The notes beneath the pieces were generated by a model. The model had not been told where the DNA came from and did not search any database. It worked only from the letters and a program-made list of their open reading frames with translations. From Candidatus Aldehydirespiratoraceae bacterium (lineage in GTDB: Bacteria; Actinomycetota; Acidimicrobiia; Acidimicrobiales; Aldehydirespiratoraceae), in the NCBI GenBank assembly GCA_965204595.1, contig CBDBEW010000014.1:405034-469033 (forward strand): a stretch of 64,000 nt of DNA. Reading direction: 5' to 3'. Position numbers and translations under genes: made by a program. Of the stretch, positions 1,785-39,083 are shown one piece after another. Position 1 is the stretch's first letter. Each line of letters opens with the position of its first letter.

Positions 1785-4615
1785 TTTGGCGTGTAACGGT
1801 TAGCGCAACACAGCATCCTTTTGCCGCGACACTCCTAGCCACAGCACCGCTAGCTGGGGTTACGGGGCTATGCAAATGCGATATCTATCGCATTTATCAC
1901 CTGCACTATGATGGTGAACAAAACACCATTGAACAAATTTGTCGTGAACTGCTTGTTGACCATGTCATTGACCAACTGTGGATAAACGACAGCCCACCAA
2001 GTCGTGGACGCACCATAGAGGTAGCGTTCCATGCGGGTGTTAACGACAATGAAGCAAGAGAAATTGAACTCGCTGCAAAACTACTCGGGGCCAACGGCTT
2101 ACGTGCCGCTACCTCATGGCGTTACGATCTTGGTGACCTTGATGACGAGGCGGTGTCGGTCATTGGGCGACATTTCTTAGCTAATGACACTATTGAACAT
2201 TGGCGAGAGGGCACCATCAATGTTGGCTTTACGAGCGAAATTTCTGCGAAGCAACAAGTCACGCAGATACCTTTAGCGGATCTCAGCGATGCCGAATTAG
2301 TAGAGGTAAGCCGGACGCGACTCCTATCTTTAGATGTCACGGAGATGCGCGCTATCCAAGACTACTTTAAAACTCTAGGGCGTGAACCAAGTGATGCTGA
2401 ACTTGAGACCTTGGCGCAAACTTGGTCAGAGCACTGTGTGCATAAAACCTTCAATGCCAACATTGAACTAACCCATGTGAAAGCAAACGGACAAACTGTC
2501 ATTAGCTGCCACAATGGTTTGTTGGCAAAGCTTCGTCAAGTGACTCAAGAACTCAACCCTTGGTGGCTTCGTTCAGCGTTTGTCGATGATGCCGGCATTG
2601 TCGCTTTTGATAACGAATTTGATGTTGCCATTAAAGTTGAGACCCATAATCATCCCTCCGCGCTTGAACCTTTTGGTGGTGCCAATACCGGTGTGGGTGG
2701 TGTAGTGCGAGATATTTTAGGTGTCTCGGCTCGCCCCATTGCCTGCACAAACGTGCTTTGTTTTGGTGACCAAGACATAAACTATGACAAGTTAGCGAAC
2801 CCACTGTTGCATCCACGGCAAATAAAAGAAGGCGTTGTGGCTGGCATAGCTGACTATGGCAACAAACTGGGTCTGCCAACCGTGGCTGGCGCGGTGCTAT
2901 ACGATCACAAATACACGGCTAACCCTTTGGTGTATTGTGGTGCTATAGGTTTGCTACGTCGTGGTGTACACCGAAATCAAGCCCAAGTTGGTGACCAAAT
3001 CATTTGTATTGGCGGCAGAGTGGGACGAGATGGCATTCACGGTGCCACTTTCTCATCTGCGAACCTTGATGCCAACGCTATTGAACAAGCAGGGGCGGCG
3101 GTACAGATTGGCGATCCAATCACGCAAAAAGGTTGTATTGAAGTGGTGGTGCAAGCTAGTGAAGCGGGTTTGTACAACGCTATTACCGACTGTGGCGCTG
3201 GTGGGTTGTCTTCAGCTATTGGCGAGATGGGCAAACATCTTGGGGTGGAGGTAGACCTAGCCAATGTGCCCCTGAAATACCCCGGGCTGCTGCCATGTGA
3301 AATCTGGATTTCAGAAGCACAAGAACGGATGGTGCTGGCCGTGCCTGATCATTCTCTAGCGTCATTGGCGCAAATTTGTGAAGACCACGAAGTCGAATTC
3401 TCCAACATCGGTTGTTTCACCAACAGTGGTGAACTAGTTGTGTATTATGGCGACCGCAAAGCAATCGAGTTGTCGATGGACTTTTTGCATGAGGGGCTGC
3501 CACAGCGAACTATGACGGCAACCTGGGTAGAGCAAAAGACCTCGAAAGTCTCACTGCCGCCACTTATTGATGAGGTTTTACTTGAATTACTGGCTCACCC
3601 TGATGTTGCTAGCAAAGAAGAAATTGTTCGCCGCTACGACCACGAAGTGCGCAGCAGTGCTGTGGTTCGCCCCTTTGTGGGTAAGTGTGGTGATGGTCCA
3701 GCCGACGCGGCGGTCATCAAACCGCTTGGCACGCACCAATCTCGGAAAGCGTTGGTGGTGAGTTGTGGCTTGTGCCCTCGTGTAGGCATGCTTGACCCAT
3801 ACACAATGTCACTACTAGCTATCGATGAAGCGGTGCGCAACTTAGTCGCGGTGGGTGGCAACCCTCAACGGGTTGCTCTGCTAGATAACTTTTGTTGGCC
3901 AGACCCCACAAAGCATCTTCAGCTAGGGGCACTGGTGCGAGCCGTTCAAGGTTGCGTTGACGGTAGCCGACGTTACGCTATGCCCTTCATTTCTGGTAAA
4001 GATAGTCTATATAACGAATTTGCGGGGCAAGCCATACCACCAACCCTGCTCATCACTGCGCTCGGTGTGGTACCCGACCTGCATTGTTCGTTGGATTCCG
4101 CGGGTATGAGCGTTGGTGACGATTTGTGGTTAGTTGGGCACGGTAGTGATGCCCTAGGTGGTTCAATAGCAGACTCAAACTATGCACTTGACGCGACTGC
4201 CGTGCCTCAAGCGGTTACCGATCCGCTACCTCGCTACCTGAGTGTTCATTCTCTAATTATGGACAAGTTGATTTCAGCCGCCCACGATTGCAGTGACGGT
4301 GGTATCGCGGTAGCTGTAGCAGAGATGGCTATTGGGGCGGTTTGTGGTGTAAGTGTTGACGTGCCCGCCGATGGTCACGATGCTTTCACAGCACTAGTCA
4401 ATGAAGGAGCGGGACGCCTAGTGTTAGCGGCACCACGTTTCAATCGCGGCAAAGTGGCAAAACGTTTGGCGCGACATGGTCGACTTGTCGGCAAAGTAAT
4501 AGAGGAAGAACAAATCCACCTGAACGTGGTTGACGAGGCCGCTAAAACCATTGATCGTATTGATGTGGCGTTGGCCGCCGCTAGAGGTGCCTTCACAAAT
4601 GGTGGCTCACGATGA
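1781..4615 (+). CDS. purL: FGAM synthase subunit PurL with two N-terminal PurS-like repeats (PurS-PurS-PurL fusion, 944 aa)
   Basis: The PurL core has EPFGGANTGVGGVVRDILG and SGKDSLYNE-type motifs. It is about 200 aa longer at the N-terminus than a small PurL. That extension shows two PurS-like segments (...ICRELLVDHVIDQ and ...IGRHFLANDTIEHW). Confidence 0.9.
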   Translation: MIWRVTVSATQHPFAATLLATAPLAGVTGLCKCDIYRIYHLHYDGEQNTIEQICRELLVDHVIDQLWINDSPPSRGRTIEVAFHAGVNDNEAREIELAAKLLGANGLRAATSWRYDLGDLDDEAVSVIGRHFLANDTIEHWREGTINVGFTSEISAKQQVTQIPLADLSDAELVEVSRTRLLSLDVTEMRAIQDYFKTLGREPSDAELETLAQTWSEHCVHKTFNANIELTHVKANGQTVISCHNGLLAKLRQVTQELNPWWLRSAFVDDAGIVAFDNEFDVAIKVETHNHPSALEPFGGANTGVGGVVRDILGVSARPIACTNVLCFGDQDINYDKLANPLLHPRQIKEGVVAGIADYGNKLGLPTVAGAVLYDHKYTANPLVYCGAIGLLRRGVHRNQAQVGDQIICIGGRVGRDGIHGATFSSANLDANAIEQAGAAVQIGDPITQKGCIEVVVQASEAGLYNAITDCGAGGLSSAIGEMGKHLGVEVDLANVPLKYPGLLPCEIWISEAQERMVLAVPDHSLASLAQICEDHEVEFSNIGCFTNSGELVVYYGDRKAIELSMDFLHEGLPQRTMTATWVEQKTSKVSLPPLIDEVLLELLAHPDVASKEEIVRRYDHEVRSSAVVRPFVGKCGDGPADAAVIKPLGTHQSRKALVVSCGLCPRVGMLDPYTMSLLAIDEAVRNLVAVGGNPQRVALLDNFCWPDPTKHLQLGALVRAVQGCVDGSRRYAMPFISGKDSLYNEFAGQAIPPTLLITALGVVPDLHCSLDSAGMSVGDDLWLVGHGSDALGGSIADSNYALDATAVPQAVTDPLPRYLSVHSLIMDKLISAAHDCSDGGIAVAVAEMAIGAVCGVSVDVPADGHDAFTALVNEGAGRLVLAAPRFNRGKVAKRLARHGRLVGKVIEEEQIHLNVVDEAAKTIDRIDVALAAARGAFTNGGSR

Positions 4616-5421
4616 CCAAGCCACCCATACTGATACCGTATGCTGCGGGCACCAACAGAGACGGCGATGCAGCACTGGCAATCGAGTTAGCCGGTGGAGA
4701 ACCACGTATCGTGACCTTAAAGGCACTGCGCGAAGACAATAAGTCCTTTTCCGAACATGCTGGTGTGCTGTTGCCGGGCGGCTTTTCTTATGGTGACGCG
4801 CTAGGTGCTGGTCAAAAACTCGCTCTTGAACTGCATCATTTTTTTGCTCAAGAATTAGAGGAGCTAATTAGGGCAGGGAAACCTGTCTTAGGTATCTGCA
4901 ACGGTTTTCAGGCACTTGTTAAATCAGGGTTTTTGCCAAACTCGCTAGCAAGCGATTCACCCCACAACGAACGCCAAGTTACATTAACTCACAACGCAAG
5001 CGGAAAGTTTGAGTGCCGGTGGGTCACCTTGAGAGTTGCTTCAAATATGTGCAGTTCATGGTTGTCACCCATACAAGGCTCGCTCATTCGTTGCCCAGTA
5101 GCACACGGTGAAGGACGTTTCATAACCACTAGCGACACCACAACCAAGGCTCTTTTTGAGCGTGGTTTGGTTGCCTTCACCTACCTCGCCAACGGCGCGG
5201 CCGCGCCCTCCCAGGAGGGCGAACAAGGTGCTCAGGGGAGTTATCCGGCGAACCCAAACGGCTCAGTAGCCGATATTGCAGGTATTTGTGACTACAGCGG
5301 TGCTGTTGTCGGACTCATGCCTCACCCAGAGAATCATGTTTTGGATTGGCAGTGTCCTAATGGTGGTTCAAAATCGAGTGGCTTACCCCTATTTGAAACG
5401 TTCGTAGCGGCGGCGCACTGA
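4612..5421 (+). CDS. purQ: FGAM synthase glutaminase subunit PurQ
   Basis: GICNGFQAL nucleophile elbow and MPHPE His/Glu motif. ATGA overlap with purL. Confidence 0.9.
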   Translation: MTKPPILIPYAAGTNRDGDAALAIELAGGEPRIVTLKALREDNKSFSEHAGVLLPGGFSYGDALGAGQKLALELHHFFAQELEELIRAGKPVLGICNGFQALVKSGFLPNSLASDSPHNERQVTLTHNASGKFECRWVTLRVASNMCSSWLSPIQGSLIRCPVAHGEGRFITTSDTTTKALFERGLVAFTYLANGAAAPSQEGEQGAQGSYPANPNGSVADIAGICDYSGAVVGLMPHPENHVLDWQCPNGGSKSSGLPLFETFVAAAH

Positions 5422-6422
5422 TGCTTGATCTCCAAACCGCGCAACAACACAGTTTTAGTGGTGTTGACTTAGAAGGTCTGGCAACTACCTGCCTAGTGCG
5501 TCGCGGCAAGGTTCGTGACATTGTTGATTGTGGAGACTCACTTATTCTCGTGAGCACCGACCGTGTGTCGGCCTTTGACCACATTCTGGGGACAATACCT
5601 TTAAAGGGTCAAATACTCAATCAACTTTCAGCTTGGTGGTTTCAACAGATCTCTAATCAAGTCAGCACACATTTCATTGATGCACCTGATCCCAACATCA
5701 GCTTGGTTAGAAGATGTATCCCATTGCCTGTAGAGGTTGTTGTTCGTGATCGGCTAAGTGGTAGCACCGCCACTTCTTTGTGGACTCAATATCAAGCCGG
5801 GAAGCGAACAATTTATGGCATCCGTTTTCCCGACGGCATGCACAAAAATCAAACTCTACAGAACCCGATCATCACGCCTACCACCAAAGCAACGGCAGGC
5901 GAACACGACTTGCCGATAAGTGAATCCGAAATCATCGCCAACAACATCGTTGATGCCGAACTCTGGGATGAGGTTCGCACTATCGCATTAGCAATGTTTG
6001 AAACTGGCAAAAGGGTTGCTTTGGCAGCAGGTTTGATCTTGATAGACACCAAATATGAGTTTGGCATCGACCAAGAAGGCCAACTCAGGGTAATTGACGA
6101 GTTGCATACTCCAGATAGCTCTCGTTATTGGCGAATGTCGAATTTGGGGTCACGCCGCGACGCAGAGTTAGAACCTGAACACCTTGACAAGGAAATAATT
6201 CGGCACGCATATCGAACCTGTGGCTATGTTGGACGCGGCACCCCACCCGAACTTGATCAAGTGCTTGCTTTACGCACAGCCACCAGTTACGCAGAGGTAT
6301 ATGAAATGCTAACGGGTTCGGCACTTGTGGTAGCAAAACAACCCGCTCAAGAACGGGTTGAGGCCTATATTGATGGTGGGCAGGTTTGCAAATATAACAA
6401 TACAGAGGAGCTTGATGACTAA
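5421..6422 (+). CDS. purC: SAICAR synthetase (long form)
   Basis: GKVRDIV...[13 protein letters not shown] and LIDTKYEFG motifs. Confidence 0.9.
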
Positions 6423-9477: not shown

Positions 9478-10752
9478 ATGCCGAACAGAGTTCTTGTGGT
9501 TGGTGCAGGCGGGCGTGAACACGCCATTGCTTGGAGTTTGGCGAAGTCACCTTTACTTGGCGAGGTCATTGTTGCGCCCGGTAACGCCGGTACAGCAACC
9601 GAAACAAAGTGTCGCAATATTCCGATTGATTTACACGACCTGCCAAAGATTGTTGCACTCGCCCAAGAACAAGAAGTGTCTTTGGTGGTTGTGGGGCCTG
9701 AGTTTCCCCTCGTGGCTGGTCTAGTTGATGTCCTAGAGGTTGCGGGTATTGCAGCATTTGGACCAACAAGCGCGGCGGCTCGCCTAGAGGGATCAAAGTC
9801 GTTTTGCAAGAACTTCTTGCAGGAAAACAACATTGCCACCGCAAGTGCAGTTTCATTTTGCGACGCTCAAGCAGCCTTGTGTCACTTGGAGAGTTTGCCT
9901 GATGTACCGGTGATCAAGGCCGTTGGCTTGGCCGCAGGCAAGGGGGTGGTGGTGGCGCAAGACAAGTCAGATGCCGCGCAAGCAATCAAGGATATGCTCA
10001 TCGGCAATCGCTTCGGTGCTGCAGGCAAAGAAATTCTCCTTGAAGAACGATTGTCTGGCAAAGAGGTTTCGGTGCTGGCCTTTTGTGACGGCCACGATTT
10101 CGCGCTAATGCCAATCACACAAGACTATAAACGTTTGCTTGATGGTGACAAGGGTTCAAATACCGGTGGCATGGGTGCGTTTTGCCCTAGTTCCTTAGTT
10201 AGTGAAAAGTTAAAGAAGCAAATTGAACAGCAAATATTCGCACCCACGCTCACCACACTAGCTCGCAACGGTCACCCTTATAAGGGGGTGCTTTACGCCG
10301 GTCTTATGCTGACCGATAATGGCCCCAAAGTAATTGAGTTCAACTGCCGCTTTGGTGACCCTGAAACGCAAGTGATATTACCGTTGCTCAAGTCTGATCT
10401 TTATGAGATTATGTTGGCTTGTTGTGAAGGCAACCTCACCAATGTCGACATTAACTGGGCAAATGACTCCGCGGTGAGCGTGGTGTTAGCAAGCAGTGGT
10501 TACCCCACACACGCGAGTTCAGCCGAACCAATAGTAGGAATTGAACAAGCACTGACTCTGGAGTGTGAGGTCTTTCACGCCGGCACTACCGTAGCTGAAG
10601 GTTCCATCTTGGCAACTGGTGGCAGGGTACTAGCCATCACGGCAACCGCAAACACAGTATCTGCGGCAGCCAAGCTGGTCTATACCAGTGTTGCCGCGGT
10701 GAACTTTGAGGGCAAACAGTATCGTTTAGACATTGGTGAGATGAACAGATGA
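9478..10752 (+). CDS. purD: phosphoribosylamine-glycine ligase
   Basis: VLVVGAGGREHAIAW N-terminus and an ATP-grasp body (NCRFGDPETQ). Confidence 0.92.
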   Translation: MPNRVLVVGAGGREHAIAWSLAKSPLLGEVIVAPGNAGTATETKCRNIPIDLHDLPKIVALAQEQEVSLVVVGPEFPLVAGLVDVLEVAGIAAFGPTSAAARLEGSKSFCKNFLQENNIATASAVSFCDAQAALCHLESLPDVPVIKAVGLAAGKGVVVAQDKSDAAQAIKDMLIGNRFGAAGKEILLEERLSGKEVSVLAFCDGHDFALMPITQDYKRLLDGDKGSNTGGMGAFCPSSLVSEKLKKQIEQQIFAPTLTTLARNGHPYKGVLYAGLMLTDNGPKVIEFNCRFGDPETQVILPLLKSDLYEIMLACCEGNLTNVDINWANDSAVSVVLASSGYPTHASSAEPIVGIEQALTLECEVFHAGTTVAEGSILATGGRVLAITATANTVSAAAKLVYTSVAAVNFEGKQYRLDIGEMNR

Positions 10753-27953: not shown

Positions 27954-27969
27954 GATATGAACTCCTTTG

Positions 27970-28164
27970 TCAAACGGATAATAGTGTGCTACCTACTACT
28001 TGACAATAGCGAGTCCCTGCGCTCGTTGACGTACCTTGCTCTGTGCAATTCCATGTCGCATTTTTTGTTCTGAACAGACTGTCAAACGAGTAAGCGGACC
28101 TAAAAGTCACCGTCCCAACTACAGCAAGTAAACACAAACCGATCAAAAGGGCCGCTTTCCGCAT
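27970..28164 (-). CDS. small putative secreted protein (64 aa)
   Basis: Signal-like N-terminus MRKAALLIGLCLLAVVG and two Cys. Lies 16 nt upstream of the previous gene. No clear RBS. Confidence 0.35.
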   Translation of the reverse strand: MRKAALLIGLCLLAVVGTVTFRSAYSFDSLFRTKNATWNCTEQGTSTSAGTRYCQVVGSTLLSV

Positions 28165-28446
28165 AAGATGTGAGGATCACTCCGCGGCGTGAGGAGCTGA
28201 CAACGCAGGTGCTTCGTTGGTGACGTGTCAGGTTGGTCATAGTCGCCCGCTAAGCAAAATGGCAACCGAACTAGAATAACAGCATTGGCAAGATTTTGAT
28301 TTATTTTGTTTTGTGTGAGCATGATTGGTTTTGGTTTGGTATGGTTGTGTTTAGCGATGGGTGAATTATTTTGATTCGTTCGTTGTGGCTTTGTCGCCGA
28401 GTCTTACCGCTTCCATTTACATCACAAAATATTTTTAGATGCAGAC

Positions 28447-28908
28447 ATGGCCAACCATTTTTCCATATCAACTATTCTTAACGACCAAATAGGTGTTATG
28501 ACCAAACCCAACAAAACAAAAACCCCAACCACAACAGAAGTGGAGTCTTCTTCAAAAGCGTCTGCTAATACGGTTGTGGAAGGTGCCGCGAAACCCAAGA
28601 GGTTTCAAGGGTTAAAGAACTCTGCGTTTTCTTTAGCGACCGCGCTACTTGTTTTGTTCGCTGGTATCACCTTCACTACCTTGAACTACAATATCGGACG
28701 ACTCGACACCCGCATCGACCGGTTAGAAGACCGCATAGATCAACGTTTTGAAGCAGTTGATCAACGTTTTGAGGCTGTCGATCAACGTTTCGAGGCTCAA
28801 GATGAGAAGTTAGATGAGATTAATCTCAAGCTAACGGCTTTGATATCTGCTTTGAATGCGTCAGCGGCTGTCGATGCTGCAATTGATGGCACACTGCTCA
28901 CGCCATAA
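28447..28908 (+). CDS. single-TM coiled-coil protein with DQRFEAx heptad repeats
   Basis: TM segment FSLATALLVLFAGITFTTL followed by RLDTRIDRLEDRIDQRFEAVDQRFEAVDQRFEAQDEKLDEINLKL. Confidence 0.55.
   Translation: MANHFSISTILNDQIGVMTKPNKTKTPTTTEVESSSKASANTVVEGAAKPKRFQGLKNSAFSLATALLVLFAGITFTTLNYNIGRLDTRIDRLEDRIDQRFEAVDQRFEAVDQRFEAQDEKLDEINLKLTALISALNASAAVDAAIDGTLLTP
28738..28800 (+). repeat. 3 x 21-bp in-frame tandem repeat (GATCAACGTTTTGARGCNGTY)
   Basis: Units read directly at 28738-28758, 28759-28779 and 28780-28800. They encode DQRFEAV x2 plus DQRFEAQ. Confidence 0.85.
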
Positions 28909-29012
28909 CCTGTGTCCGCATTTCAAAGCTCAAGCAATCGACCGCTCTCTCGACACATTCACTCCACCCTAAAACGCGAAGAGCCATCAAAGCTACACCG
29001 CTTCACACCGCA

Positions 29013-29120
29013 GTGTCCAACGGGTACAGCATCGACGACTTCGACATCGACACCCAAGCCCGAACGGTCACCTGCCTCGCCGGTGTGACCATAAATATCA
29101 CCAACAACCGCTTATCATCG
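29013..29120 (+). pseudogene. transposase fragment (IS1182/IS5-like C-terminal motif)
   Basis: YSIDDFDIDTQARTVTCLAGVT resembles the F-x-I/Y-D-x-x-x-x-x-x-V-T-C-P-A-G block of IS1182/IS5-type transposases. Only about 35 codons are recognisable, and the rest of the track ORF is antisense to the next gene. Confidence 0.4.
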
Positions 29121-29224
29121 AAAACCTCAATAACCGTCAAGAAGAAACAGTACTGTGATTCAACAATTAGATGTCATTTAGCGAACAACTCGCTGAAGCA
29201 GTGGTTGCACAACGTCTTTCGGAA

Positions 29225-29896
29225 TCATAAAGAGTTGCCTAATCGTTGGCCTAACACGCCTGAGATGCCCTGTAATTGCGTTTGCACGCCTTGATTACCG
29301 CAATGTTCGGCGAAGCGCTCCATGACGATCTCTTCAACTTGTTGCCAGTTGTGGGCACGCAGTCCCTGTAGGTGACGGTTGTGGTATTGATCAAAAACGA
29401 TAACTTCGTTGCCCGCAGATCTCAAGGCTTCTATGTTATGCGGTGCGTCATCAATATATAAATTAGCTTCCACTTGTGGTTTGGCACCGAGAAAACAAAG
29501 GTCACGATAGGGGATACGTACCCGATCGAGCCAATCAACGGTGTCACTAGCAGCGATTTGGTGCCCCCAATTCACATAAAGACGATGGGTGATTATGCGT
29601 ATCCAAACCCCGGCATCCGATAGCCGCCACAACGCTTCGGTAGCACCTTCAATCACTTCCATATCTCTGAACATGCGACCTTGCGTGACCGCATACAGAT
29701 GGTGATCTTCAAAAGTTTCTTGACTAAAACCCCATTCCTCAAAGTTCCAACTGCGTTCCAAAGGAAGGGATTCTTCTGCAACGCCAAGCCGCTTGGCAAC
29801 AACGCGGCGAAAACCGAGTGTGTGCTCAGCGCATACCCCATCTAGGTCAACACCGAGGACAAAGGTTTCAGGGTTGGTGGTTTCAGGTGTGGTCAT
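29225..29896 (-). CDS. HAD-superfamily 5'(3')-deoxyribonucleotidase-like protein (NT5C family)
   Basis: VLGVDLDGVCAEH (DxDGV nucleophile motif) and LYIDDAPHNIEAL motif. Confidence 0.6.
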   Translation of the reverse strand: MTTPETTNPETFVLGVDLDGVCAEHTLGFRRVVAKRLGVAEESLPLERSWNFEEWGFSQETFEDHHLYAVTQGRMFRDMEVIEGATEALWRLSDAGVWIRIITHRLYVNWGHQIAASDTVDWLDRVRIPYRDLCFLGAKPQVEANLYIDDAPHNIEALRSAGNEVIVFDQYHNRHLQGLRAHNWQQVEEIVMERFAEHCGNQGVQTQLQGISGVLGQRLGNSL

Positions 29897-29955
29897 ATTG
29901 CATAAATCCTTTAGTTGTTATGTTATCTGTCTTAGAAATCGCTAGCGTCTCCTAA

Positions 29956-30630
29956 ATGCCTAAACGATACGAAGATTTAGCCGCGGCACGAGAACTAAAT
30001 CAGGTATTGCGCGACCTCATCAACACCGTGCGAACCGCAGACTTTACAGGCGTTGACTTGGCTTCTGCTATCGGACAACTACGTTCGGTTGACTCTGAGT
30101 TGGCAAACCATACGGTTCCAAAGTTACAGACGCAATCCACTCTTGAGGGCGAGGAACGGTTTGAAGACAGTTCAACTGAGTTACTAAAGCAAGGTCCGCC
30201 GCGCGCTATTGAGGGTGCTGAACCCGCTGAGTTCTTCCCGTATAGCCCGATCGTGGGGCCGCTTAACCCAATTTCGCCACCAGCTAAGTTGACTAAAGTT
30301 GCTGTTGGGAATTCGTTTGAGATCCAAGGTGAGGTCGTCTTTCCGACGGCGTTTAATGGTCCGCCGGGTTGTGTTCATGGTGGTGCTTTGGCGGCTTTGA
30401 TTGATGAAATGCTTGGGTTGGTGGGTGTGGTTAATGGCTTGGGTGGCTTTACCGGCACGTTAACTGTTGTGTACCATTCACCCACGCCCTTGTACACCCC
30501 TTTGACCTTGCGTTCTTGGATTGAACGTGTTGATGGTAGGAAGGTTTTCTCTTCTGGAGAAATTCGTGTTGGCGAGCAATTGTGCGCCTCCGCAGACGCA
30601 ATTTTCATTCAACCTAAACCAAGAAGTTAG
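29956..30630 (+). CDS. hotdog-fold (PaaI-like) thioesterase with an N-terminal extension
   Basis: PPGCVHGGALAALIDEMLG motif typical of PaaI/4HBT-type thioesterases. Confidence 0.6.
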   Translation: MPKRYEDLAAARELNQVLRDLINTVRTADFTGVDLASAIGQLRSVDSELANHTVPKLQTQSTLEGEERFEDSSTELLKQGPPRAIEGAEPAEFFPYSPIVGPLNPISPPAKLTKVAVGNSFEIQGEVVFPTAFNGPPGCVHGGALAALIDEMLGLVGVVNGLGGFTGTLTVVYHSPTPLYTPLTLRSWIERVDGRKVFSSGEIRVGEQLCASADAIFIQPKPRS

Positions 30631-30633
30631 CAA

Positions 30634-30685
30634 GCACCTTAACTCAGTGTCACACCCCTTGTGCTATTGTGCAATGCGTTGCCAA
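30634..30685. repeat. left copy of a 52-bp direct repeat flanking the R-M cassette
   Basis: GCACCTTAACTCAGTGTCACACCCCTTGTGCTATTGTGCAATGCGTTGCCAA. Identical at 50 of 52 positions to 32510-32561 by manual alignment. Confidence 0.9.
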
Positions 30686-30714
30686 TGAACGAGCAAAATG
30701 GAGGAGCTGGCGGC

Positions 30715-31653
30715 ATGAGCGAAAGGTTTGACTGCGCTGACTTCTTCTGTGGCATAGGTGGGTTCCACATAGCCGCTGCAAGCCTGGGACATCGTGTCGT
30801 GGTGGCTTGTGATATTGACGAAGAAGCGCGGCGAGCGTATGCCGCCAACTTCGCCATCTTGCCCTATGGAGACATATGCACGTTGAACGAAAAGGAGGTG
30901 CCAGATTTCGACTTGTTGTTCAGCGGATTTCCCTGCCAGCCATTCTCGATCATCGGCAAGCGCAATGGTTTTGCTGACGACAGAGGCACGTTGTTTTTCC
31001 AACTGTCGCGGTTCATCTCTGAGAAAAAACCTATTGGGATCATCTTGGAAAACGTCAAGCAGTTGGCTACGGCTAAGGGCGGAACCTTACTACAGTGTAT
31101 GATTGAGGAACTATCCGATCTTGGATACCACGCTGACTACCGTGTGCTGAACACGCTGGACTTTGAGTTGCCGCAAAACCGCGAACGGGTTTACATAGCC
31201 GCATCTTTGCGGTCGCTTGAATCGTTCAAATGGCCCTCTGATGCCGTGTCTATGACACCGCTATCGGACATCTTGGAGAGCGATCCCGACCCCAAACACT
31301 TCGCGTCCGAAGAGATACGAGCTAAGCGTCACCGAGCGCATACCGCAGAGGCCAGTCCTATGATTTGGCACGAGAACAAGAGCGGTAACATATCTAGCCA
31401 TCCGTGGTCGTGCGCGCTAAGAGCGGGAGCCTCCTACAACTACCTGTTGGTAGACGGCAACCGCCGGCTGACACCGCGTGAAACGCTCAGACTGCACGGG
31501 TTCCCCGATTCATGGAAGATTGTGTGCAGCGACAGTCAAACGAAGAAGCAGACCGGTAACGCCGTGTCTGTGCCGGTCGCAAGGGCCATGATCAAAGCAA
31601 TGGGAGAGTACCTTGGAAGAACCGAGACTGAGACGCGGCAGTTATCAGCATAA
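30715..31653 (+). CDS. DNA (cytosine-5)-methyltransferase
   Basis: Motif I FFCGIGGF, motif IV GFPCQPFS, motif VI ENVKQL, motif VIII QNRERVYI, motif X TGNAVSVPV. Start chosen at the ATG at 30715 with GGAGGA 10 nt upstream. The track start at 30661 lies inside the repeat. Confidence 0.9.
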   Translation: MSERFDCADFFCGIGGFHIAAASLGHRVVVACDIDEEARRAYAANFAILPYGDICTLNEKEVPDFDLLFSGFPCQPFSIIGKRNGFADDRGTLFFQLSRFISEKKPIGIILENVKQLATAKGGTLLQCMIEELSDLGYHADYRVLNTLDFELPQNRERVYIAASLRSLESFKWPSDAVSMTPLSDILESDPDPKHFASEEIRAKRHRAHTAEASPMIWHENKSGNISSHPWSCALRAGASYNYLLVDGNRRLTPRETLRLHGFPDSWKIVCSDSQTKKQTGNAVSVPVARAMIKAMGEYLGRTETETRQLSA

Positions 31654-32352
31654 ACCACGATACCCGCTAGGCGAGATACCAGACGATGTGTTGCGTGCCG
31701 TGGGCAGACTTATGGTCTACCGCGCCGTTGTGGGCATTGGTGATGTAAGTGGAGACGGCTTCGGAGACATATTCGCAGAGGCCGTGGGAGGTACACACTA
31801 CGCTAGTCCTGTTGGCGTGGTGGATGTCGCTTGTGGGGTTACTGGATGGTCAGTGAAAACAGTGAAGAAGCCTGACCCGTTCACCACACGTACCATTAGG
31901 TTGGTATCTGGAAGGAATTCGCCAGACTATTCATACGGAATCTCAGACCCCCGTTACGACATACAGAAAACCGGCAGTGCTGTGTTGACGATATGGAACC
32001 AGCGTATCCAAGATTCGTTGTCGGAGTTTCACGAGCTCCGCACAGCGGGCTCGTTCGCAACTTTGAGGACAGGAAGTTCGTGCTGTTCGAGCACGAAATG
32101 GAACTGTTTCTGCCAGACGACTACTTGTGGACTGTGAATGCCCGCGGCAATTTAGAGGGCACAGAAACGGCAACAAACAGGAGCAGGTTCGTGTGGCAAC
32201 CGCACGGATCGCAGTTCACCATACGGGAGAACGTGCCGGACACGGCTAGGGCGTTTTATGTGGCGCGAACCGTGGAGACATTGGACACAGCCGACCTTCT
32301 CGGCCTTATAGATTACAGCGACGAGTGGATCAAATTGAAGGAGTCTCTGTGA
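31613..32352 (+). pseudogene. type II restriction endonuclease candidate, split by a frameshift near 32035-32060
   Basis: Two overlapping ORFs in different frames (31613-32137 and 31993-32352). The first carries a PD-(D/E)xK-like VVDVACGVTGWSVKTVK and ends in Cys/Ser-rich nonsense. The second becomes protein-like only from ...LVRNFEDRKFVLFEHE. The 5' end overlaps the MTase stop. Confidence 0.55.
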
Positions 32353-32509
32353 TGCCGACAGAAGAACTACCCCAAAAGAGTCACGAGATCAGTCCTGCCC
32401 CGAAGAGATATTCACGTTTGTCGGCAAGACGGAGGACCTTGCCGACGTTCGCTCAAGGAGCGCGAGTGAGTGCTTCGCTTCTTTCGATATAAACCCAAGA
32501 GGTGGCAGC

Positions 32510-32561
32510 GCACCTTAAGTCAGTGTCACACCCCTTGTGCTATTGTGAAATGCGTTGCCAA
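32510..32561. repeat. right copy of the 52-bp direct repeat
   Basis: GCACCTTAAGTCAGTGTCACACCCCTTGTGCTATTGTGAAATGCGTTGCCAA. Ends 26 nt before the GTG at 32588. Confidence 0.9.
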
Positions 32562-32587
32562 AATCGTAATTCACAAGGAGGCATTTT

Positions 32588-32950
32588 GTGACCACAAGTC
32601 CATTCGAACGAAACCCTGACCCTTTCGCCGAGGAAGGTTTTAGCTCTTCAACATCCCAAGTTGCCCCACTCAAGCGAGACACTAGCCTCGTGATTTTTAC
32701 CGTGCCGGCGATATTGGCATCGCTGCTCGCTGTTTTATTGTATTGGTGGGGTGTGGTGGGTTATGGTGCCGTGGGTATGGCTGCTTTAGGATACGTGCTA
32801 GCAGTGTTGGCAGACACACAAACGCGTCGCACACGTTACGATCAACGCAACTTCGTGCGCCCTAAACTCACTACTAGTTTGCGGGTCGCAACGTTTCTGA
32901 TGGCATTGTTGATCGGTTGGCTAGTTGCTTCAAATCTGGCAGGCTCGTGA
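32588..32950 (+). CDS. small three-TM membrane protein with an N-terminal SPF/DPF peptide (cassette gene A)
   Basis: AAGGAGG lies 7 nt before the GTG. N-terminus TTSPFERNPDPFAEEGF followed by three hydrophobic helices. The stop overlaps the next start (ATGA). Confidence 0.7.
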   Translation: MTTSPFERNPDPFAEEGFSSSTSQVAPLKRDTSLVIFTVPAILASLLAVLLYWWGVVGYGAVGMAALGYVLAVLADTQTRRTRYDQRNFVRPKLTTSLRVATFLMALLIGWLVASNLAGS

Positions 32951-35772
32951 TGCGCGTAATTTGTTTGCTATTTCTGGCAATTTCTTTGGCAGGTGTGCTG
33001 CTCGCAACCACGTCTCCCGCCACCGCAGAAACAAACGTGCCCGTTACCGACAGGTGCTTTTTATCCGAAAGTCAAAACCAAGTCAATGTTTTGATCTTGA
33101 TGGACGTTTCTGGGAGCTTGGCAAGTAACGATCCTGATGGGGCGCGTCAAAAAGGGTTGGAGAGTGCACTAAATAATCTCGCCCGCTTGGCAAGAACTCA
33201 TGATGACGTTGATATCAAAGTTGCCATAGACACATTCGCAAGACGCTATCGCCAAGTTTTGGGCTGGCTGGATGCGAACGAAGCAGCCGTGGCACTCGCA
33301 GACAACATTCGTGAAATTATTCGATCTGGTGGAAGAACTGACTACCGTGAAGCTCTCAAGGGTGCGGCAGCACGTTTTAGCGAAGAACCAGAAAGCACCT
33401 GCAACCTGCTTATGTGGTTCACAGATGGATCACACGACACGAACAATAGCACGCAGGTTGTAGCCAGTGAGTGGGCTGATTTAACCGAGCTTTGTTCATC
33501 ACAGGAAATGAGCGACCTGTCTAATGTAAGTGTCTGGACAACAAGCGTGCTGCTATCTTCAGACGACCTCAACCAAGCAAGCCTCAACACTACCCGCACC
33601 GAACCCCTCGAATTTGTTTACGGTGAACATCCGCGTAACTGTGAACATCCACTTGACGGTGAGATTCGAGCTGACATCAACAGCGAAGAGTTGCGCAACC
33701 TATTAGGCGAGCTATTAAGCGAGGCTGTCTACCGATCCACCGCTACTAGCGATTTGCCCGGAGACGATGATCTGCTACCAAACGAGGCTGAATTTGAAAA
33801 GTGTCAAGGAGAAGGCACCCAAGATGACCCCTGTCAGTTCAATTTTGGGCTAACCGAAACCCATGAGGGTTTTCGCGTATTTGTTGACATGACGTATTCA
33901 AACAATCAAATTCTTGATCCAAGTGCTATCAACGTTGACTTAATTTCTCCGACCGACCGGACATACTCGGTCTACTCTGCTTCGGGAAGCCAACCAACAA
34001 ATGAGGTCCGCTACCAAGAAATTGGTGATTCTGGATTTCTGTCCTACTTTCCATATGACAGTCGCTGGGAAATTATCGGCCATCAAGTGGCAAGAGATTC
34101 GGCTACTGATTGGGAGTGGGCTGGTGAGTGGACGCTTCACTATTGGGGCGACGATAGCGTCCAAAGCAGAGAAGCCACTAAGGTGGCAAGCGCGCTGCGC
34201 ACGATCACGACACCAAAACCTTCTGTCAATATGCGTGTTACCCCGCAAGACGCTCTATTTGGAGAAATAACCAATTATCCAGAACCTGACCAGATACCAG
34301 AATTGCGCTTGCGAGTAGAAAACGGCCAAGGTGGACCACTCTATACCACACGCACGTTCCCTCTGAGTCCAGTGAGCACCGAAAATCCGCAGTTTAGCGA
34401 ACCAGACATTTATAAAGATTTGCTTTACTGGGATAGTGAAGCTGGGGGTGGTGATGGAACAAGTTTGCTTGAAGCATTCGAGAATCAACCGCCGATCACC
34501 TTGGTTGGGGAGTTGAGTCAGGAATTTCAATATGGCAACAACGACGTGACCTGGACACGTCCATTGGATAGACAACTTGAATTGGAAGGTCTCGCCAACT
34601 TCATTGAAGGCGTTAATGAGCGTGCAGAGTTAGAAGAGTGGCTCAACGACCTAGAGCAAGGTAACGCAGATCAACCTGCGTTGCCAACGGTACAGTTGAC
34701 TAATACACCATATGACATTAATGGCTCTGAGGTGGAATTAGATGTTGATGTGCCTGAGGGACGGTTTCCTGGGGACTTGTCGCTAGTTGATGTTAGAGCA
34801 ACAGAAGGTAACCCAGCGGGTGCGTGGAACTGCTCCACACCGTCGGACACTCCTTGCCCACCAGTCAAAGTAGACTTGGGCTTAAACGAAGACGGCAACG
34901 TGGAGACCACGTTAGTTATAGAAATACGCCCAAATCCCGACCTAGAAAGAACATTACGCAACCGCTATGTGATGTTTAGCAACGACGAATGGGCTGATAT
35001 CTGGAATCGGATTTCCCAAGCCACTCAAGCCACAACACTTACTCTGACCTCTGAACCAATTCAGGTCGACATTGCCACCCCTAGCGACAAGATAAGCAAG
35101 TTCTTACCAATATTGGTGGCTCTCGTTTTGTTGGCGGTTGCGTTGCGCTTTGCGGCGGCTTGGTGGCTAAGGCCCTGGCTGCCCTTGGCAACAGCTCAAT
35201 ATGTTGTGAAACCCCTGCAATCAGCGACTGGACTTGCACCCATGATTTCACAACAGCGAGAGTTGTGTATGGACCTCACCGCGCGATCATCATCTGCCAA
35301 TATTGGCTCGGTGGTGCTCAACTCGAGGTTGTTGCCTCTTTTGATAGGTCGTCCCCCGTTGCTTGAAGCACGATCGTCGCGCGGCAATTGCTTTGGTTCA
35401 AGAGGCAGCTATCACAACAGAAAGGGCGAAAGAGTAGGTCGAGTTGGAAACTCTTTGCACGATGGTTGGGTGGTTGATCTTGCAACAGACACACCCTTGT
35501 TGATTGTGTGGGACTTACCAAGTGATGAAACAGATCAGGCAAATCGCATCTCAGAAGTGACCAGCGAAGCATCAGACAAATTGGAGAAGTTGCATCTTGC
35601 AACGCACAAGCCAGCATCGAATCAAAGTTCCAAGATCCCATCGCCACAAACTGACCCATTTTCAAATCCCGCTCGGGATCCATTTGCTGAACCACGGATT
35701 AGCAATGATCCCTTCGCAGATGAGAGCCGTGATCCGTTCAACGAACCAAGACGCAGCGATCCCTTTACGTAA
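32950..35772 (+). CDS. type-I membrane vWA (MIDAS) protein with a cytoplasmic DPF-repeat tail (cassette gene B, 940 aa)
   Basis: Signal peptide MRVICLLFLAISLAGVLLATTSPATA/ETN. vWA MIDAS motif LILMDVSGS (DVSGS at 33103-33117) plus MWFTDGSHD. Large extracytoplasmic region and a TM segment FLPILVALVLLAVALRFAAAWWL (about 35101-35168). The C-terminal tail ends with five DPF motifs. Confidence 0.8.
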   Translation: MRVICLLFLAISLAGVLLATTSPATAETNVPVTDRCFLSESQNQVNVLILMDVSGSLASNDPDGARQKGLESALNNLARLARTHDDVDIKVAIDTFARRYRQVLGWLDANEAAVALADNIREIIRSGGRTDYREALKGAAARFSEEPESTCNLLMWFTDGSHDTNNSTQVVASEWADLTELCSSQEMSDLSNVSVWTTSVLLSSDDLNQASLNTTRTEPLEFVYGEHPRNCEHPLDGEIRADINSEELRNLLGELLSEAVYRSTATSDLPGDDDLLPNEAEFEKCQGEGTQDDPCQFNFGLTETHEGFRVFVDMTYSNNQILDPSAINVDLISPTDRTYSVYSASGSQPTNEVRYQEIGDSGFLSYFPYDSRWEIIGHQVARDSATDWEWAGEWTLHYWGDDSVQSREATKVASALRTITTPKPSVNMRVTPQDALFGEITNYPEPDQIPELRLRVENGQGGPLYTTRTFPLSPVSTENPQFSEPDIYKDLLYWDSEAGGGDGTSLLEAFENQPPITLVGELSQEFQYGNNDVTWTRPLDRQLELEGLANFIEGVNERAELEEWLNDLEQGNADQPALPTVQLTNTPYDINGSEVELDVDVPEGRFPGDLSLVDVRATEGNPAGAWNCSTPSDTPCPPVKVDLGLNEDGNVETTLVIEIRPNPDLERTLRNRYVMFSNDEWADIWNRISQATQATTLTLTSEPIQVDIATPSDKISKFLPILVALVLLAVALRFAAAWWLRPWLPLATAQYVVKPLQSATGLAPMISQQRELCMDLTARSSSANIGSVVLNSRLLPLLIGRPPLLEARSSRGNCFGSRGSYHNRKGERVGRVGNSLHDGWVVDLATDTPLLIVWDLPSDETDQANRISEVTSEASDKLEKLHLATHKPASNQSSKIPSPQTDPFSNPARDPFAEPRISNDPFADESRDPFNEPRRSDPFT

Positions 35773-35804: not shown

Positions 35805-38800
35805 ATGCTTAGACCAGTAATCTTTATCGGATGTGGCGGCTCTGGAGAAAAAGCTGTTCGCTACGTTCGTGCAGCAGTGCAGCGAACCCTTGACCATTAC
35901 GATTGGCCCCACGGTATGCCAAACCCGTGGCAGTTCATCGGCCTAGATACCCTTACAGTGCAGGAATCACCCACAGAGATCCCAACCATCCCCTCACAAG
36001 ACTTCTTGACGCTGTCCTCAGAACACGACACCTACGCGGCACTGCACCGCTCATTAGAAGCCAATCACAACCAACACCAAGGACACCCAGAATTGTTGTG
36101 CGGCTGGTTGCCCAACCCAGATGGCGTGAGTCTTCCTCTCAAGGATGGAGCTGGCCAGAATCGTGCTATAGGTAGAGCCGCAGGACTAAGATCTCTTGAA
36201 CGCACACTATTATCGCGTCTCAAAGAAGCATTCAGAAGAGCGAGTTCTGGCGGCCAAGAACTTTACGAGGTTGGTCAGGCACTTGGGGTGGATGCTGAAC
36301 TCGGAACCGAAACTCCAGCACCCTTGGTGATGGTTTGTTCATCCATGGCAGGCGGCACGGGAGCCGGTGTTGCACTAGATGTGATCGACCTAGTACGTCG
36401 CTGTGATCCATTGGGTGCCCATCCCTCGCTAGTGCTATTTGCCAATGACATCTTTGATGTGGGGGAGAAGGTTCCGATGGCAGCAAACTCTTTGGGTTTG
36501 ATTTCAGAGCTGATGGCTGCTTATTGGTCTAGGGCAGGTGAAATCGAATCACCACTCACCACTAAAGGAGTGCAAAGCCCAGGTGCGGGGCCTCACTCTG
36601 TTTTTGTGCTAGGCAAGGTGGGTTACAGCGGCGCAGACCTCGGTAACACCAAAGACTTCTATCACGCAGTTGGTGAAGCTCTGTCGGTATGGGTTACATC
36701 AGCAGTTGTACAAGAACAGATTCACAACTTCATCAACGTCAATTGGCGCAACAATGCCAAGATCAACTTTGGTGGTTATCCCTTTGGCAAGGATGCACAG
36801 TTCGGGGCAATCTCTTCTTTCGGAGCAGCAAAAGTGACCGTGGGACGGGATCGCTTTGTGCAATGGGCACAACACAAAATTGGTAGGGAAGTGCTTGACG
36901 CATTGCTCAAAGGCCACCTTAGAGATCAATCGCTTCAGGGAAATCAGCAGACATCGCAAACAACAGATGCAGAACTCATTGCTGAGCTCGGCAAAAAATA
37001 CGCCCCAATGGTGTTTGCGGGTGCCCCACTTTGGGAAGCAGCACCCGAACAACTAGAAGGTTTTCAGGGCGCACAGCTGCGCTTTGCTTCAGATGAAAAG
37101 GTTCGCAACAAGGCGAGAGAGCTAAATAATGACTTGACAGAAACACTGGGTGGACACACCTCCAGCGGTGCTCAATGGGCGAGCGAACTCGAACTGCTCG
37201 CACGCCAACAGGTTTCTGCTATTGACCGTTCAAGCACTGCACCTGAAGATCACCAGTGGCACCAAGACATGGTGGATGCCACCTGTTTATCCGCATCGCA
37301 AGTGGCCGCAGTGTCGTCTCTAGGTGTTGCCTCAGCCGCGCTAAGAGAAGCGGTAAAGCTAAATCAAAGAGAACTAAACGACGTGCGCCGCGCGGCACAA
37401 CTTGCTGAGCACAGATACGGCGAACGTGTTGGCCAGGGCTTGGAGCAAATTCGCAACATCAATGGTCAAGCCGATAACAATCACGGCGAACTCGTGGACG
37501 GTATCAAGAGTGTTGCGCAAGGCGTGGCGTTCCGTTGGCAGTTTCAACGCCTCAACCACGTAGCAAAAGTGCTAGAACACGCCGAACGAGAGGTCTTTGG
37601 GGTTATCGCGGGTGCGCTAGATAGGGTCGTTCCCCAAGTAGGCGAAGCACTCGACAGCGATGAGGTGAATGCTTGGCCCATGCCACACACCCTTGGCGTG
37701 CCCGATCGCTACACCCCTTCAACGGTGGAATTTCCTCTCGAACATCATGACCAGTGGATGGATAATCTCGAGCTGCTCTGCCAGGAGGCTAGGGAAAGTA
37801 GAGTGCCTTATGGGGCCAGAGAAATAGATGCACTTCGTTACCGTCTCATTGCTGGCACCCCCATAGCGAGCAGCAAAGGGCAAATTCCCTCGTTGGTGCA
37901 TCGCTCGCCAACACGTTGGATATTAGGGCAATCTACTAGGGTGATCTGTCAAGCAGGCAAAGCAGATATTGAGGCCCGCGTGCATCAATGGACCAACGCT
38001 CCAGGTAGCAAGTTTAAGCGCTTCTTAGATGAAGGGTTGGCGGCTTATCTCAATGAAAGCGATCCCGATAGTGGTGAACCGCGACTAGACCACACCCAAC
38101 GACTGCAAGAGTTTAGAAGGCAACTTGGCAAAGCTAAAGAAGGTTCCAAACCGCTGGTGTCGGTAGATCAAGACCTCTATGGGGTTTGTCACCCCACGAA
38201 GAGTTTGGAACTACGCACAATTTGCTCACAGTTTCCCTTTCCCGAAGGCCACGCAGCGAGCGAAGATGCCAAGGGCATCGTCGGTGAAGCTGCCTACAGT
38301 ATTAGCAGCACCGACACGACCTCGATTCTGGTTTCGCAATACTTAGGTAATCCTGTTCATCCCATGGTGGTGCGCTCCATCACAGAGCCACTTAATGAAG
38401 CGATCGCAGTAACAGAAGACCCCGTTGAACGCTCGTCGTCATTTTGGATGTGGCGGCGCGCCAGGCGTCTTGATGGCTTTATACCGTTGCCGAGGACGGT
38501 GCTTGAAGCAGTTGTAAGGGGTTTTGCCGTGGCCAGACTTTGTGGCTACATCACCGCAGATGCTAGCAAACCAATGTGCATCAGTGCAGCCCCTGATGAG
38601 GTGGAGTTCCCGTTTCCATGTCTGAGTAGGTTGCGTCATCCCAACGATGTCTTAGCAGGTCTGCTTGAGAGCTTCTCGTTGACATATGGCTTAGTTGGAG
38701 GTGAAGGAATAGCGGCCTTTGAAGGATACAGGCGGCTTCATGGGTTAGGTGAGCCTATCGAACGCAAACAACTACCTAGAGACCTAGAAAATTTGCTCAA

Positions 38801-39083
38801 CACAGGATTACCAACATACGCCGCGGTAGCTGGGGAGGAAGCGAAAGTTATTGGTAGCACTCTCGACGAACGTCAAAGTCGTGCCATGTCCTATTTAGAA
38901 GCAAATGTGCAATGGTTTTGGGATAAGAAAACCAATCGTGGCGAGCGCATCCATCATCGCAATCAAAACGGTCTTGCTGAAGAAGGTGTGCCGACAATGG
39001 AAATGGCCGACGTGTTTGCTCGCTGCTACAGCCAACTCCTTGAACTTCTGGCGGCGAGAGGCTCAAAAGGCAGCGTGGTATGA
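35805..39083 (+). CDS. tubulin/FtsZ-like GTPase, large form (Tubulin_2-type, 1092 aa; cassette gene C)
   Basis: N-terminal VIFIGCGGSGEKAV (T1-like loop, 35829-35846). DGAGQNRAIGRAAG segment. LVMVCSSMAGGTGAGVALDVIDLVR (tubulin signature-like T4 loop, GGTGAG at 36351-36368). ANSLGLISELMAAY segment. About 750 aa of C-terminal sequence is unassigned. Confidence 0.75.
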   Translation: MLRPVIFIGCGGSGEKAVRYVRAAVQRTLDHYDWPHGMPNPWQFIGLDTLTVQESPTEIPTIPSQDFLTLSSEHDTYAALHRSLEANHNQHQGHPELLCGWLPNPDGVSLPLKDGAGQNRAIGRAAGLRSLERTLLSRLKEAFRRASSGGQELYEVGQALGVDAELGTETPAPLVMVCSSMAGGTGAGVALDVIDLVRRCDPLGAHPSLVLFANDIFDVGEKVPMAANSLGLISELMAAYWSRAGEIESPLTTKGVQSPGAGPHSVFVLGKVGYSGADLGNTKDFYHAVGEALSVWVTSAVVQEQIHNFINVNWRNNAKINFGGYPFGKDAQFGAISSFGAAKVTVGRDRFVQWAQHKIGREVLDALLKGHLRDQSLQGNQQTSQTTDAELIAELGKKYAPMVFAGAPLWEAAPEQLEGFQGAQLRFASDEKVRNKARELNNDLTETLGGHTSSGAQWASELELLARQQVSAIDRSSTAPEDHQWHQDMVDATCLSASQVAAVSSLGVASAALREAVKLNQRELNDVRRAAQLAEHRYGERVGQGLEQIRNINGQADNNHGELVDGIKSVAQGVAFRWQFQRLNHVAKVLEHAEREVFGVIAGALDRVVPQVGEALDSDEVNAWPMPHTLGVPDRYTPSTVEFPLEHHDQWMDNLELLCQEARESRVPYGAREIDALRYRLIAGTPIASSKGQIPSLVHRSPTRWILGQSTRVICQAGKADIEARVHQWTNAPGSKFKRFLDEGLAAYLNESDPDSGEPRLDHTQRLQEFRRQLGKAKEGSKPLVSVDQDLYGVCHPTKSLELRTICSQFPFPEGHAASEDAKGIVGEAAYSISSTDTTSILVSQYLGNPVHPMVVRSITEPLNEAIAVTEDPVERSSSFWMWRRARRLDGFIPLPRTVLEAVVRGFAVARLCGYITADASKPMCISAAPDEVEFPFPCLSRLRHPNDVLAGLLESFSLTYGLVGGEGIAAFEGYRRLHGLGEPIERKQLPRDLENLLNTGLPTYAAVAGEEAKVIGSTLDERQSRAMSYLEANVQWFWDKKTNRGERIHHRNQNGLAEEGVPTMEMADVFARCYSQLLELLAARGSKGSVV

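Follow-up and report, generated by a model that had tools for sequence, protein, structure and literature searches.

The DNA analysed here, referred to as the window, is a stretch of 64,000 nucleotides (nt) from contig CBDBEW010000014.1 of Candidatus Aldehydirespiratoraceae bacterium, a member of the Acidimicrobiia. Near its center, a gene for a C-5 cytosine (m5C) DNA methyltransferase (MTase) and a candidate restriction endonuclease (REase) gene lie between two long direct repeats. This restriction-modification (R-M) unit separates a thioesterase gene from an operon, or cassette, that begins with a small gene we call gene A and continues with genes for a vWA-domain protein and a tubulin-like protein. 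The features of the locus are as follows, in window coordinates; open reading frame is abbreviated to ORF.

29956..30630, + strand: PaaI/4HBT-type thioesterase (Pfam 4HBT; homologs named PaaI family thioesterase)
30616..30685, + strand: left repeat copy, core 30634-30685 (self-comparison, shuffles)
30648..30670, + strand: promoter-like bipartite motif, left copy, TGTCACACCCCTTGTGCTATTGT (TGTCACA-N10-TAnnnT), with 45 nt from the end of TATTGT to the MTase ATG
30715..31653, + strand: C-5 cytosine DNA methyltransferase, intact (Pfam DNA_methylase, E 5.8e-75; TIGR00675 dcm; PADLOC MTase_II, 2e-92)
31613..32352, + strand: restriction-endonuclease candidate, a pseudogene here (TTG start at 31613; split ORF; linkage to m5C MTases)
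32353..32491, + strand: trailing insert DNA, about 140 nt, 93.6% identical to the related scaffold L001 (described below), with a weak terminator-like hairpin at 32457-32476
32492..32561, + strand: right repeat copy, core 32510-32561, keeping a thioesterase pseudo 3' end (...PRGGSAP, then stop)
32524..32546, + strand: promoter-like motif, right copy, beginning 64 nt before the start of gene A
32588..32950, + strand: gene A, small protein with two transmembrane segments, first gene of the vWA/tubulin-like cassette (conserved in 19/19 related loci)
32950..35772, + strand: vWA-domain protein (Pfam VWA_2)
35805..39083, + strand: Tubulin_2 protein (Pfam Tubulin_2)

The direct repeat and the duplicated unit

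Self-comparison of the window revealed exactly two copies of a 52-nt sequence, GCACCTTAA[C/G]TCAGTGTCACACCCCTTGTGCTATTGTG[C/A]AATGCGTTGCCAA, in direct orientation at 30634-30685 and 32510-32561. The copies are identical at 50 positions and mismatched at two. None of 100 dinucleotide-preserving shuffles yielded any match, and none is expected by chance. An earlier reading made from the letters alone (the sequence-only reading) had reported this 50/52 pair and had placed the MTase, an endonuclease candidate and some trailing DNA between the copies; the pair is confirmed exactly, and the gene content agrees with that description. Ungapped similarity reaches 18 nt further to the left, to 30616 and 32492, giving 70 nt at 86% identity. 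With one indel the repeat is possibly some 12–25 nt longer in that direction (to 30604/32479), an extension that is not significant alone. The copies are 1,824 nt apart when measured between the 52-nt cores and 1,806 nt apart between the 70-nt copies, and both adjoin the insert directly.

The final ~8 codons of the thioesterase gene fall within the left repeat. The thioesterase of the window stops at a TAG (30628-30630), four codons ahead of an in-frame ancestral TAA (30640-30642), and the thioesterase of L001 reads through to this TAA inside the repeat core. The right copies of both the window and L001 retain an in-frame pseudo C-terminus that ends at the ancestral TAA. Since the left extension is the end of the thioesterase gene and the right copies spell its pseudo C-terminus, the duplicated unit comprises about 70 bp, made up of a gene 3' end, a stop codon and ~45 nt of intergenic DNA. 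If the insert is removed together with one copy, the distance from the thioesterase stop (30630) to the GTG of gene A (32588) becomes 81 nt, in agreement with the normal spacer of about 80 nt that the sequence-only reading had calculated.

The closest relative of the locus is L001, a metagenome scaffold from the European Nucleotide Archive that is 92–93% identical to the window at the nucleotide level over 17 kb. It has the same gene order (thioesterase-MTase-REase-gene A-vWA-tubulin), flanking repeats of 68 nt at 90% identity and an intact 246-residue REase ORF (9658-10398). Because L001 shares the layout and the repeats and its REase is intact, the event predates the split of the two lineages; on the simplest reading, the common ancestor of the window genome and L001 already carried the insert with its repeats. 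In addition, Logan contigs from the independent sequencing runs X1 (430x) and X3 cover 29800-33300 with 0 differences to the window. An assembly artefact is excluded by these identical contigs and by the same architecture in the separate L001 assembly. This independent assembly support, the overlap of the repeat with the thioesterase 3' end and the frameshift described below are absent from the sequence-only reading.

We found no further copy of the 52-mer with up to three mismatches in the window. A 17-base core of the repeat matched 34 metagenome loci, of which only L020 is syntenic; the other 33 are chance matches without flanking similarity. A dispersed intergenic repeat family of the repetitive extragenic palindromic (REP) or miniature inverted-repeat transposable element (MITE) kind, which the sequence-only reading had named as a test of its proposal, was therefore rejected on the basis of two window copies and metagenome matches that are syntenic or due to chance.

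Content and state of the insert

The only ORFs in the insert are those of the MTase and the REase candidate. The MTase gene is preceded by a ribosome-binding site (RBS), GGAGGAG, at 30700-30706. Its best relative of solved structure is M.HhaI, which it matches over its full length (E 2.9e-53), with a target-recognition region that does not align. We dropped an M.HhaI-like GCGC specificity from consideration on account of this unaligned region and of palindrome statistics that were uninformative. The arrangement resembles M.HhaI-type systems, with an m5C MTase and a small downstream type IIP endonuclease, in the full-length MTase match, the order M then R and the overlap of the two genes. It differs from them in the target-recognition region, which is not conserved here, and in an REase family that has no sequence-family match.

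The REase candidate overlaps the MTase gene by 41 nt and, in the window, is split into two overlapping ORFs in different frames. The cause is a 1-nt deletion after 32048, where the window reads GCGG-GCTC and L001 reads GCGGTGCTC with an extra T. The resulting frameshift falls at about codon 146 of 246 and removes the conserved C-terminal half. Runs X1 and X3 carry the deletion as well, and the intact T is present in X4 (a sponge metagenome) and X5 (a marine metagenome), so that an intact paired endonuclease is found in L001, X4 and X5 and is missing from the window genome. With its REase frameshifted, the pair is no longer functional in this genome, which carries an orphan methylase and a nuclease pseudogene. 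The description of the locus as an R-M gene pair in the sequence-only reading thus stands as regards the presence of both genes and fails as regards a functional pair.

About 900 homologs of the REase candidate, of ~245 residues each, occur in many phyla (including P0121-P0240). Sequence searches of Pfam, NCBIfam, PADLOC and PDB returned no match, and the family appears to be an uncurated family of type II REases. The AlphaFold2 model of a homolog is confident, with a predicted local distance difference test (pLDDT) score of 91. Its best fold matches in the PDB are weak, namely ThaI (3ndh; E 0.07, TM-score 0.32–0.37) and EcoRV (E 0.16), with TM-scores below 0.4. The residues D71...S80-x-K82 are conserved in the alignment. 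At L041-L043, three loci that all have a called MTase, the homolog lies directly downstream of an m5C MTase gene; at L040, no MTase gene is called between a Vsr gene and the REase homolog. Given the linkage to m5C MTases and the weak fold matches, we treat the candidate as a probable type II endonuclease that has been inactivated in the window genome.

Homologous M-R pairs at L040, L041 and L043 (about 3300-5800) share one conserved position, which is flanked by DUF1214 and a methyltransferase/glycosyltransferase cluster. Vsr genes adjoin the M-R loci in L040 and L041, and the REase of L043 is annotated as Candidatus Poriferisocius sp.

The composition of the R-M unit looks foreign. The insert has a GC content of 53.8%, compared with 50.4% for the window, which places it in the top 3.5% of windows of the same size, and the GC content at third codon positions (GC3) is 0.54–0.70 for the insert genes (0.63 for the MTase) and 0.44–0.50 for host genes. 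The trailing DNA has an insert-like GC content of 53.2%. Folding of its hairpin at 32457-32476 is no better than that of shuffled sequences. Neither the trailing ~140 nt nor the 29-nt leader ahead of the MTase gene gave a significant match in blastn and tblastx comparisons with all fetched loci. We also considered a Vsr remnant, which found no support.

Direct repeats of tens of base pairs over gene 3' ends are typical of integrase-mediated islands (PMC2853133). Accordingly, a site-specific recombinase could have left the repeats as its attL and attR sites, or a transposon could have produced them as its target duplication, and the R-M genes would then remain from a larger mobile element. We consider this highly improbable, since neither the insert nor its neighbors encode an integrase, transposase or recombinase domain, the locus contains no tRNA gene, and no terminal inverted repeats were found. 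The insert is, moreover, only 1.8 kb long and filled by two genes, and the homologous R-M loci L040-L043 have no such flanking repeats.

A conserved promoter-like motif in the duplicated segment

To define what was duplicated, we compared the 160 nt upstream of gene A in 20 sequences, comprising the window and 19 related loci. The pattern TGTCA[CT]A-N9-10-TAnnnT has 14 matches on both strands of the 658 kb of these 19 loci. Twelve of them lie 56–89 nt upstream of gene A, in 12 of the 19 lineages (among them L002, L051, L053-L057, L059 and L065-L067). The remaining two are the left copy of L001, ahead of its MTase gene, and one match elsewhere. The TAnnnT half fits what we take to be the usual actinobacterial -10 hexamer. 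The TGTCACA half lies only 10–11 nt from this -10-like hexamer, a spacing that is unusual for a sigma-70 promoter.

Between the window and L001, the right copies have 1 difference in 52 positions and the left copies have 6, and the pooled synonymous difference (pS) of the flanking genes is ~18% (0.183). The right copy, diverging far less than this flank value, is therefore under constraint. A structured RNA element such as a riboswitch or leader was rejected, as there was no Rfam match at E<=1 and no stable RNA fold (z-scores of +1.5 and -1.2 relative to shuffles). Judged by the position-specific conservation of the motif, we take the repeat to hold a conserved cis-regulatory element of the cassette, most likely its promoter. 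This supports two further claims of the sequence-only reading: the duplicated segment would be the native 5' region, and probably the promoter, of the downstream operon, and both the MTase gene and the operon now lie behind a copy of it, each copy containing the motif.

If TATTGT acts as the -10 element, transcription would be predicted to start about 7 nt downstream of it, near 30677 and 32553, in each case inside a repeat copy, and each copy could drive the gene behind it through the RBS of that gene, which for gene A is AAGGAGG at 32575-32581. A 12-nt inverted repeat at 32543-32554 and 32565-32576 (TTGTGAAATGCG / CGTAATTCACAA) spans the boundary of the right repeat just upstream of the gene A RBS. 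Since both of its arms are present at the right copy only, the two promoter-like copies may differ in their regulation.

Exact-protein look-ups with the window thioesterase and gene A matched no record. Further upstream, a 1.26-kb segment of low GC content (38–49%) at 27968-29230 is missing from L001. It encodes a 153-residue coiled-coil protein with no Pfam family above threshold and contains three tandem 21-nt repeats at 28738-28800.

Origin of the duplication

Based on these features, we favor the insertion of a foreign R-M unit with a long target duplication of a ~70-bp host segment, to which we assign a probability of roughly 0.55. According to this proposal, an Acidimicrobiia ancestor of the window genome and L001 would have acquired horizontally a 1.8-kb type II R-M unit consisting of an m5C methylase and an overlapping small endonuclease, without a mobility gene. 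Insertion of the unit ~26 nt ahead of gene A, within the 5' untranslated region of the gene A-vWA-tubulin operon, would have duplicated ~70 bp of target, which begin with the final ~8 codons of the thioesterase and its stop and run through the promoter-like element to just beyond the predicted transcription start. The left copy would now precede the methylase RBS and may drive the methylase. The right copy still precedes gene A, and the host operon therefore kept its control region. A later 1-nt deletion in the window genome would then have killed the endonuclease and left an orphan methylase.

The locus fits the known class of R-M "insertion with long target duplication", first described in H. 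pylori (ref. 37 of PMC2853133) and surveyed by Furuta, Abe & Kobayashi (2010, NAR 38:2428, PMC2853133). That survey required the presence of R and M in the insert, an insert size below 20 kb, a repeat of more than 30 bp and the absence of other mobile elements; its authors called the mechanism unknown and thought double-strand breakage possibly involved. The statement of the sequence-only reading that such insertions had been reported is correct. The window locus resembles the class in that R and M are the sole cargo, the insert is far below 20 kb and lacks a mobility gene, the repeat exceeds 30 bp and is unique to this site in the sequence examined, and R-M-free alleles exist in related genomes. 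As in the H. influenzae cases, where 46-bp repeats overlap the 3' end of a gene by 2–15 bp (PMC2853133), the repeat here extends into the upstream gene at its 3' end. In contrast to the surveyed cases, the empty sites occur here in distant relatives and not in conspecific strains, the event is old and common to two lineages about 8% diverged, and a conserved promoter-like element belonging to the downstream operon served as the target. A further difference is the host, an Acidimicrobiia lineage with relatives in sponge and marine metagenomes; the only actinobacterial case in the survey is from Clavibacter, with a 29-bp repeat, and Acidimicrobiia are not represented there (PMC2853133).

We compared the divergence between the window and L001 gene by gene. 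The synonymous divergence (dS) is 0.116 for the MTase and 0.079 for the REase, and 0.12–0.33 for other genes in the 17-kb alignment. This places the R-M genes within the range of their neighbors, in keeping with a unit carried by the common ancestor. The thioesterase is an outlier, with a dS of 0.52, a nonsynonymous divergence (dN) of 0.145 and 79% amino acid identity, and its divergent patch stops at the left repeat. Fisher tests against the pooled flanks gave p=3e-6 for the R-M genes and p=9e-9 for the thioesterase. This pattern leaves room for later recombination at the repeats, without proving it. One form of such recombination would be a Campbell-type integration, in which a circle of the R-M genes and one 70-bp copy, excised from a related genome, enters by a single homologous crossover within the 70-bp homology and so regenerates the flanking repeats. 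It would account for spread between relatives and not for the first origin of the arrangement. The R-M dS of 0.08–0.12, which is below that of the adjacent NT5C (0.30), gene A (0.28) and vWA (0.24) genes, and the change in divergence at the left repeat speak for it, as does the published hypothesis of a "virus-like life cycle" in which R-M units are amplified and excised via flanking long direct repeats (cited in PMC2853133). The long direct repeats around the R-M genes would indeed allow unequal crossing-over, deletion and circle formation. However, the R-M values are within the range of PRA-CH (0.12), PRAI (0.12) and hyp232 (0.13) in the same alignment, the assembled contigs of X1 and X3-X5 show no excision joints and no amplified, deleted or circular forms, and no second R-M source above 59% amino acid identity was found. 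We therefore regard Campbell-type integration as quite unlikely. A recent R-M transfer between the window and L001 lineages was likewise not established, the low dS being within the range of neighboring genes. In the window genome, the dead REase means that there is no post-segregational selection.

Alleles without the R-M genes, which the sequence-only reading had proposed as a test, were found in distant relatives only; the case it had named as refuting, a lack of such alleles in every genome, therefore does not apply. In L046, whose thioesterase is 55% identical at the amino acid level, a 130-nt spacer separates the thioesterase from the gene A homolog and contains the core (AATGTCACACCCATGCGCTA) once, 69 nt ahead of gene A. 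In L002-L005 and L020 (thioesterase 59% identical), a 307-nt spacer lies between the thioesterase and gene A-vWA-tubulin. Two perfect 52-nt direct repeats that include the core motif lie in this spacer at a distance of 144 nt (L002 3420-3695), as do three copies of the thioesterase 3' end; no cargo lies between the copies. The duplication may be a spontaneous tandem duplication or the scar of lost inserts. L003 differs in one copy, a hint of conversion between copies.

These cargo-free tandem copies, together with the two motif copies in L057, indicate that the duplication could predate the insertion. The ~70-bp segment would then have been tandemly duplicated beforehand and the R-M genes inserted between the copies by illegitimate recombination, which corresponds to the class called "chance insertion between repeated sequences" by Furuta and colleagues, in which the repeats are not a product of insertion. 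Short tandem duplications upstream of gene A in several lineages and the three copies of the cassette 5' flank in L056 point the same way, and the 29-nt leader and 140-nt trailing DNA could be an old inter-copy spacer. On the other hand, both copies are complete units where they meet the insert, the trailing DNA is insert-like in GC content, the leader and trailing DNA showed no similarity to any inter-copy spacer, and the duplications of the L002 type could themselves be scars of insertions later lost. Taking both sides into account, we judge duplication before insertion to be somewhat unlikely.

Several observations nevertheless weigh against insertion with target duplication as the favored explanation. 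The same segment is tandemly duplicated without cargo in L002-type genomes, and L057 carries two copies of the motif. The R-M-free relatives are distant, and alignment to them is limited to a core of ~20 nt; for comparison with an uninterrupted single target, L046 aligns over this core only, and the L002-type alleles hold two or three copies of the segment. No near-identical empty-site strain was found in the sequencing runs, a metagenome motif scan or GTDB genomes, and a thioesterase scan of genome contigs found no relative. A sigma-70 consensus scan found nothing in either repeat copy. Finally, the REase assignment draws on gene linkage and a weak fold match (ThaI, EcoRV). The sequence-only claim of a cassette inserted with target duplication therefore holds for a foreign R-M unit within long repeats; that the insertion caused the duplication is less secure, given the cargo-free copies of the L002 type.

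A related signature surrounds the whole cassette in sister lineages. In L051, L053, L056 and L063, where the cassette lies upstream of the thioesterase, the 12.8–14.5-kb gene A-vWA-tubulin cassette is bracketed by direct repeats of 40–65 nt:

L053, 4483-4547 and 17306-17370: cassette-bracketing repeats, 62/65 positions matching
L056, 2780-2839 and 17300-17359: cassette-bracketing repeats
L063, 4330-4384 and 17079-17133: cassette-bracketing repeats
L051, 4470-4509 and 17269-17308: cassette-bracketing repeats

The repeat is the complete intergenic region between a short-chain dehydrogenase/reductase (SDR) gene and the thioesterase gene, reaching from the start codon of the SDR gene as far as the A in the thioesterase ATG. 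L044 and L047 contain this region once and have no cassette, and thus represent clean empty sites. Left copies retain features of the SDR side and right copies those of the thioesterase side (alignment A2), and no recombinase domain is detectable in the cassette. We count these loci in favor of insertion with target duplication, since they show an event of the same kind for which clean empty sites exist. In the window, a search for a repeat on either side of the entire cassette found none. In L056, the outer repeat and the cassette promoter are separated by about 1.7 kb of extra high-GC DNA (2840-4600), which holds a small helix-turn-helix-like ORF (4042-4440); the three copies of the cassette 5' flank at this locus are nested, have ~1.3–1.7 kb of additional DNA between them and include a 39-nt direct repeat at 3194-3232 and 4495-4533.

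Duplications, some with cargo and some without, have thus recurred at the 5' boundary of the cassette, the R-M insert of the window being one example. A bolder interpretation would make this boundary a dedicated Acidimicrobiia hotspot for recombinase-independent or cassette-encoded insertion, each event duplicating a whole short regulatory region. The relevant cargoes would be the R-M genes of the window, the ~1.3–1.7 kb of L056 and the cassette itself in L051, L053, L056 and L063. We consider such a hotspot unlikely at present; if it were real, the mechanism behind insertion with long target duplication could be worked out in this clade as a natural system.

This Acidimicrobiia example adds a functionally readable duplicated target to the class catalogued in 2010. 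With a gene end and the conserved promoter-like element of the operon that follows both included in the duplicated target, the two neighbors kept their signals, and the methylase, promoterless on arrival, acquired a copy of the promoter-like element. The locus further illustrates how such a unit later decays: the nuclease is dead here, and the methylase survives as an orphan. The presence of the cassette in sister lineages with the same signature and clean empty sites suggests that the process of insertion with duplication is not specific to R-M genes. The locus is of value mainly because it is a clean example that can be read functionally and because it points to a clade in which the phenomenon recurs.

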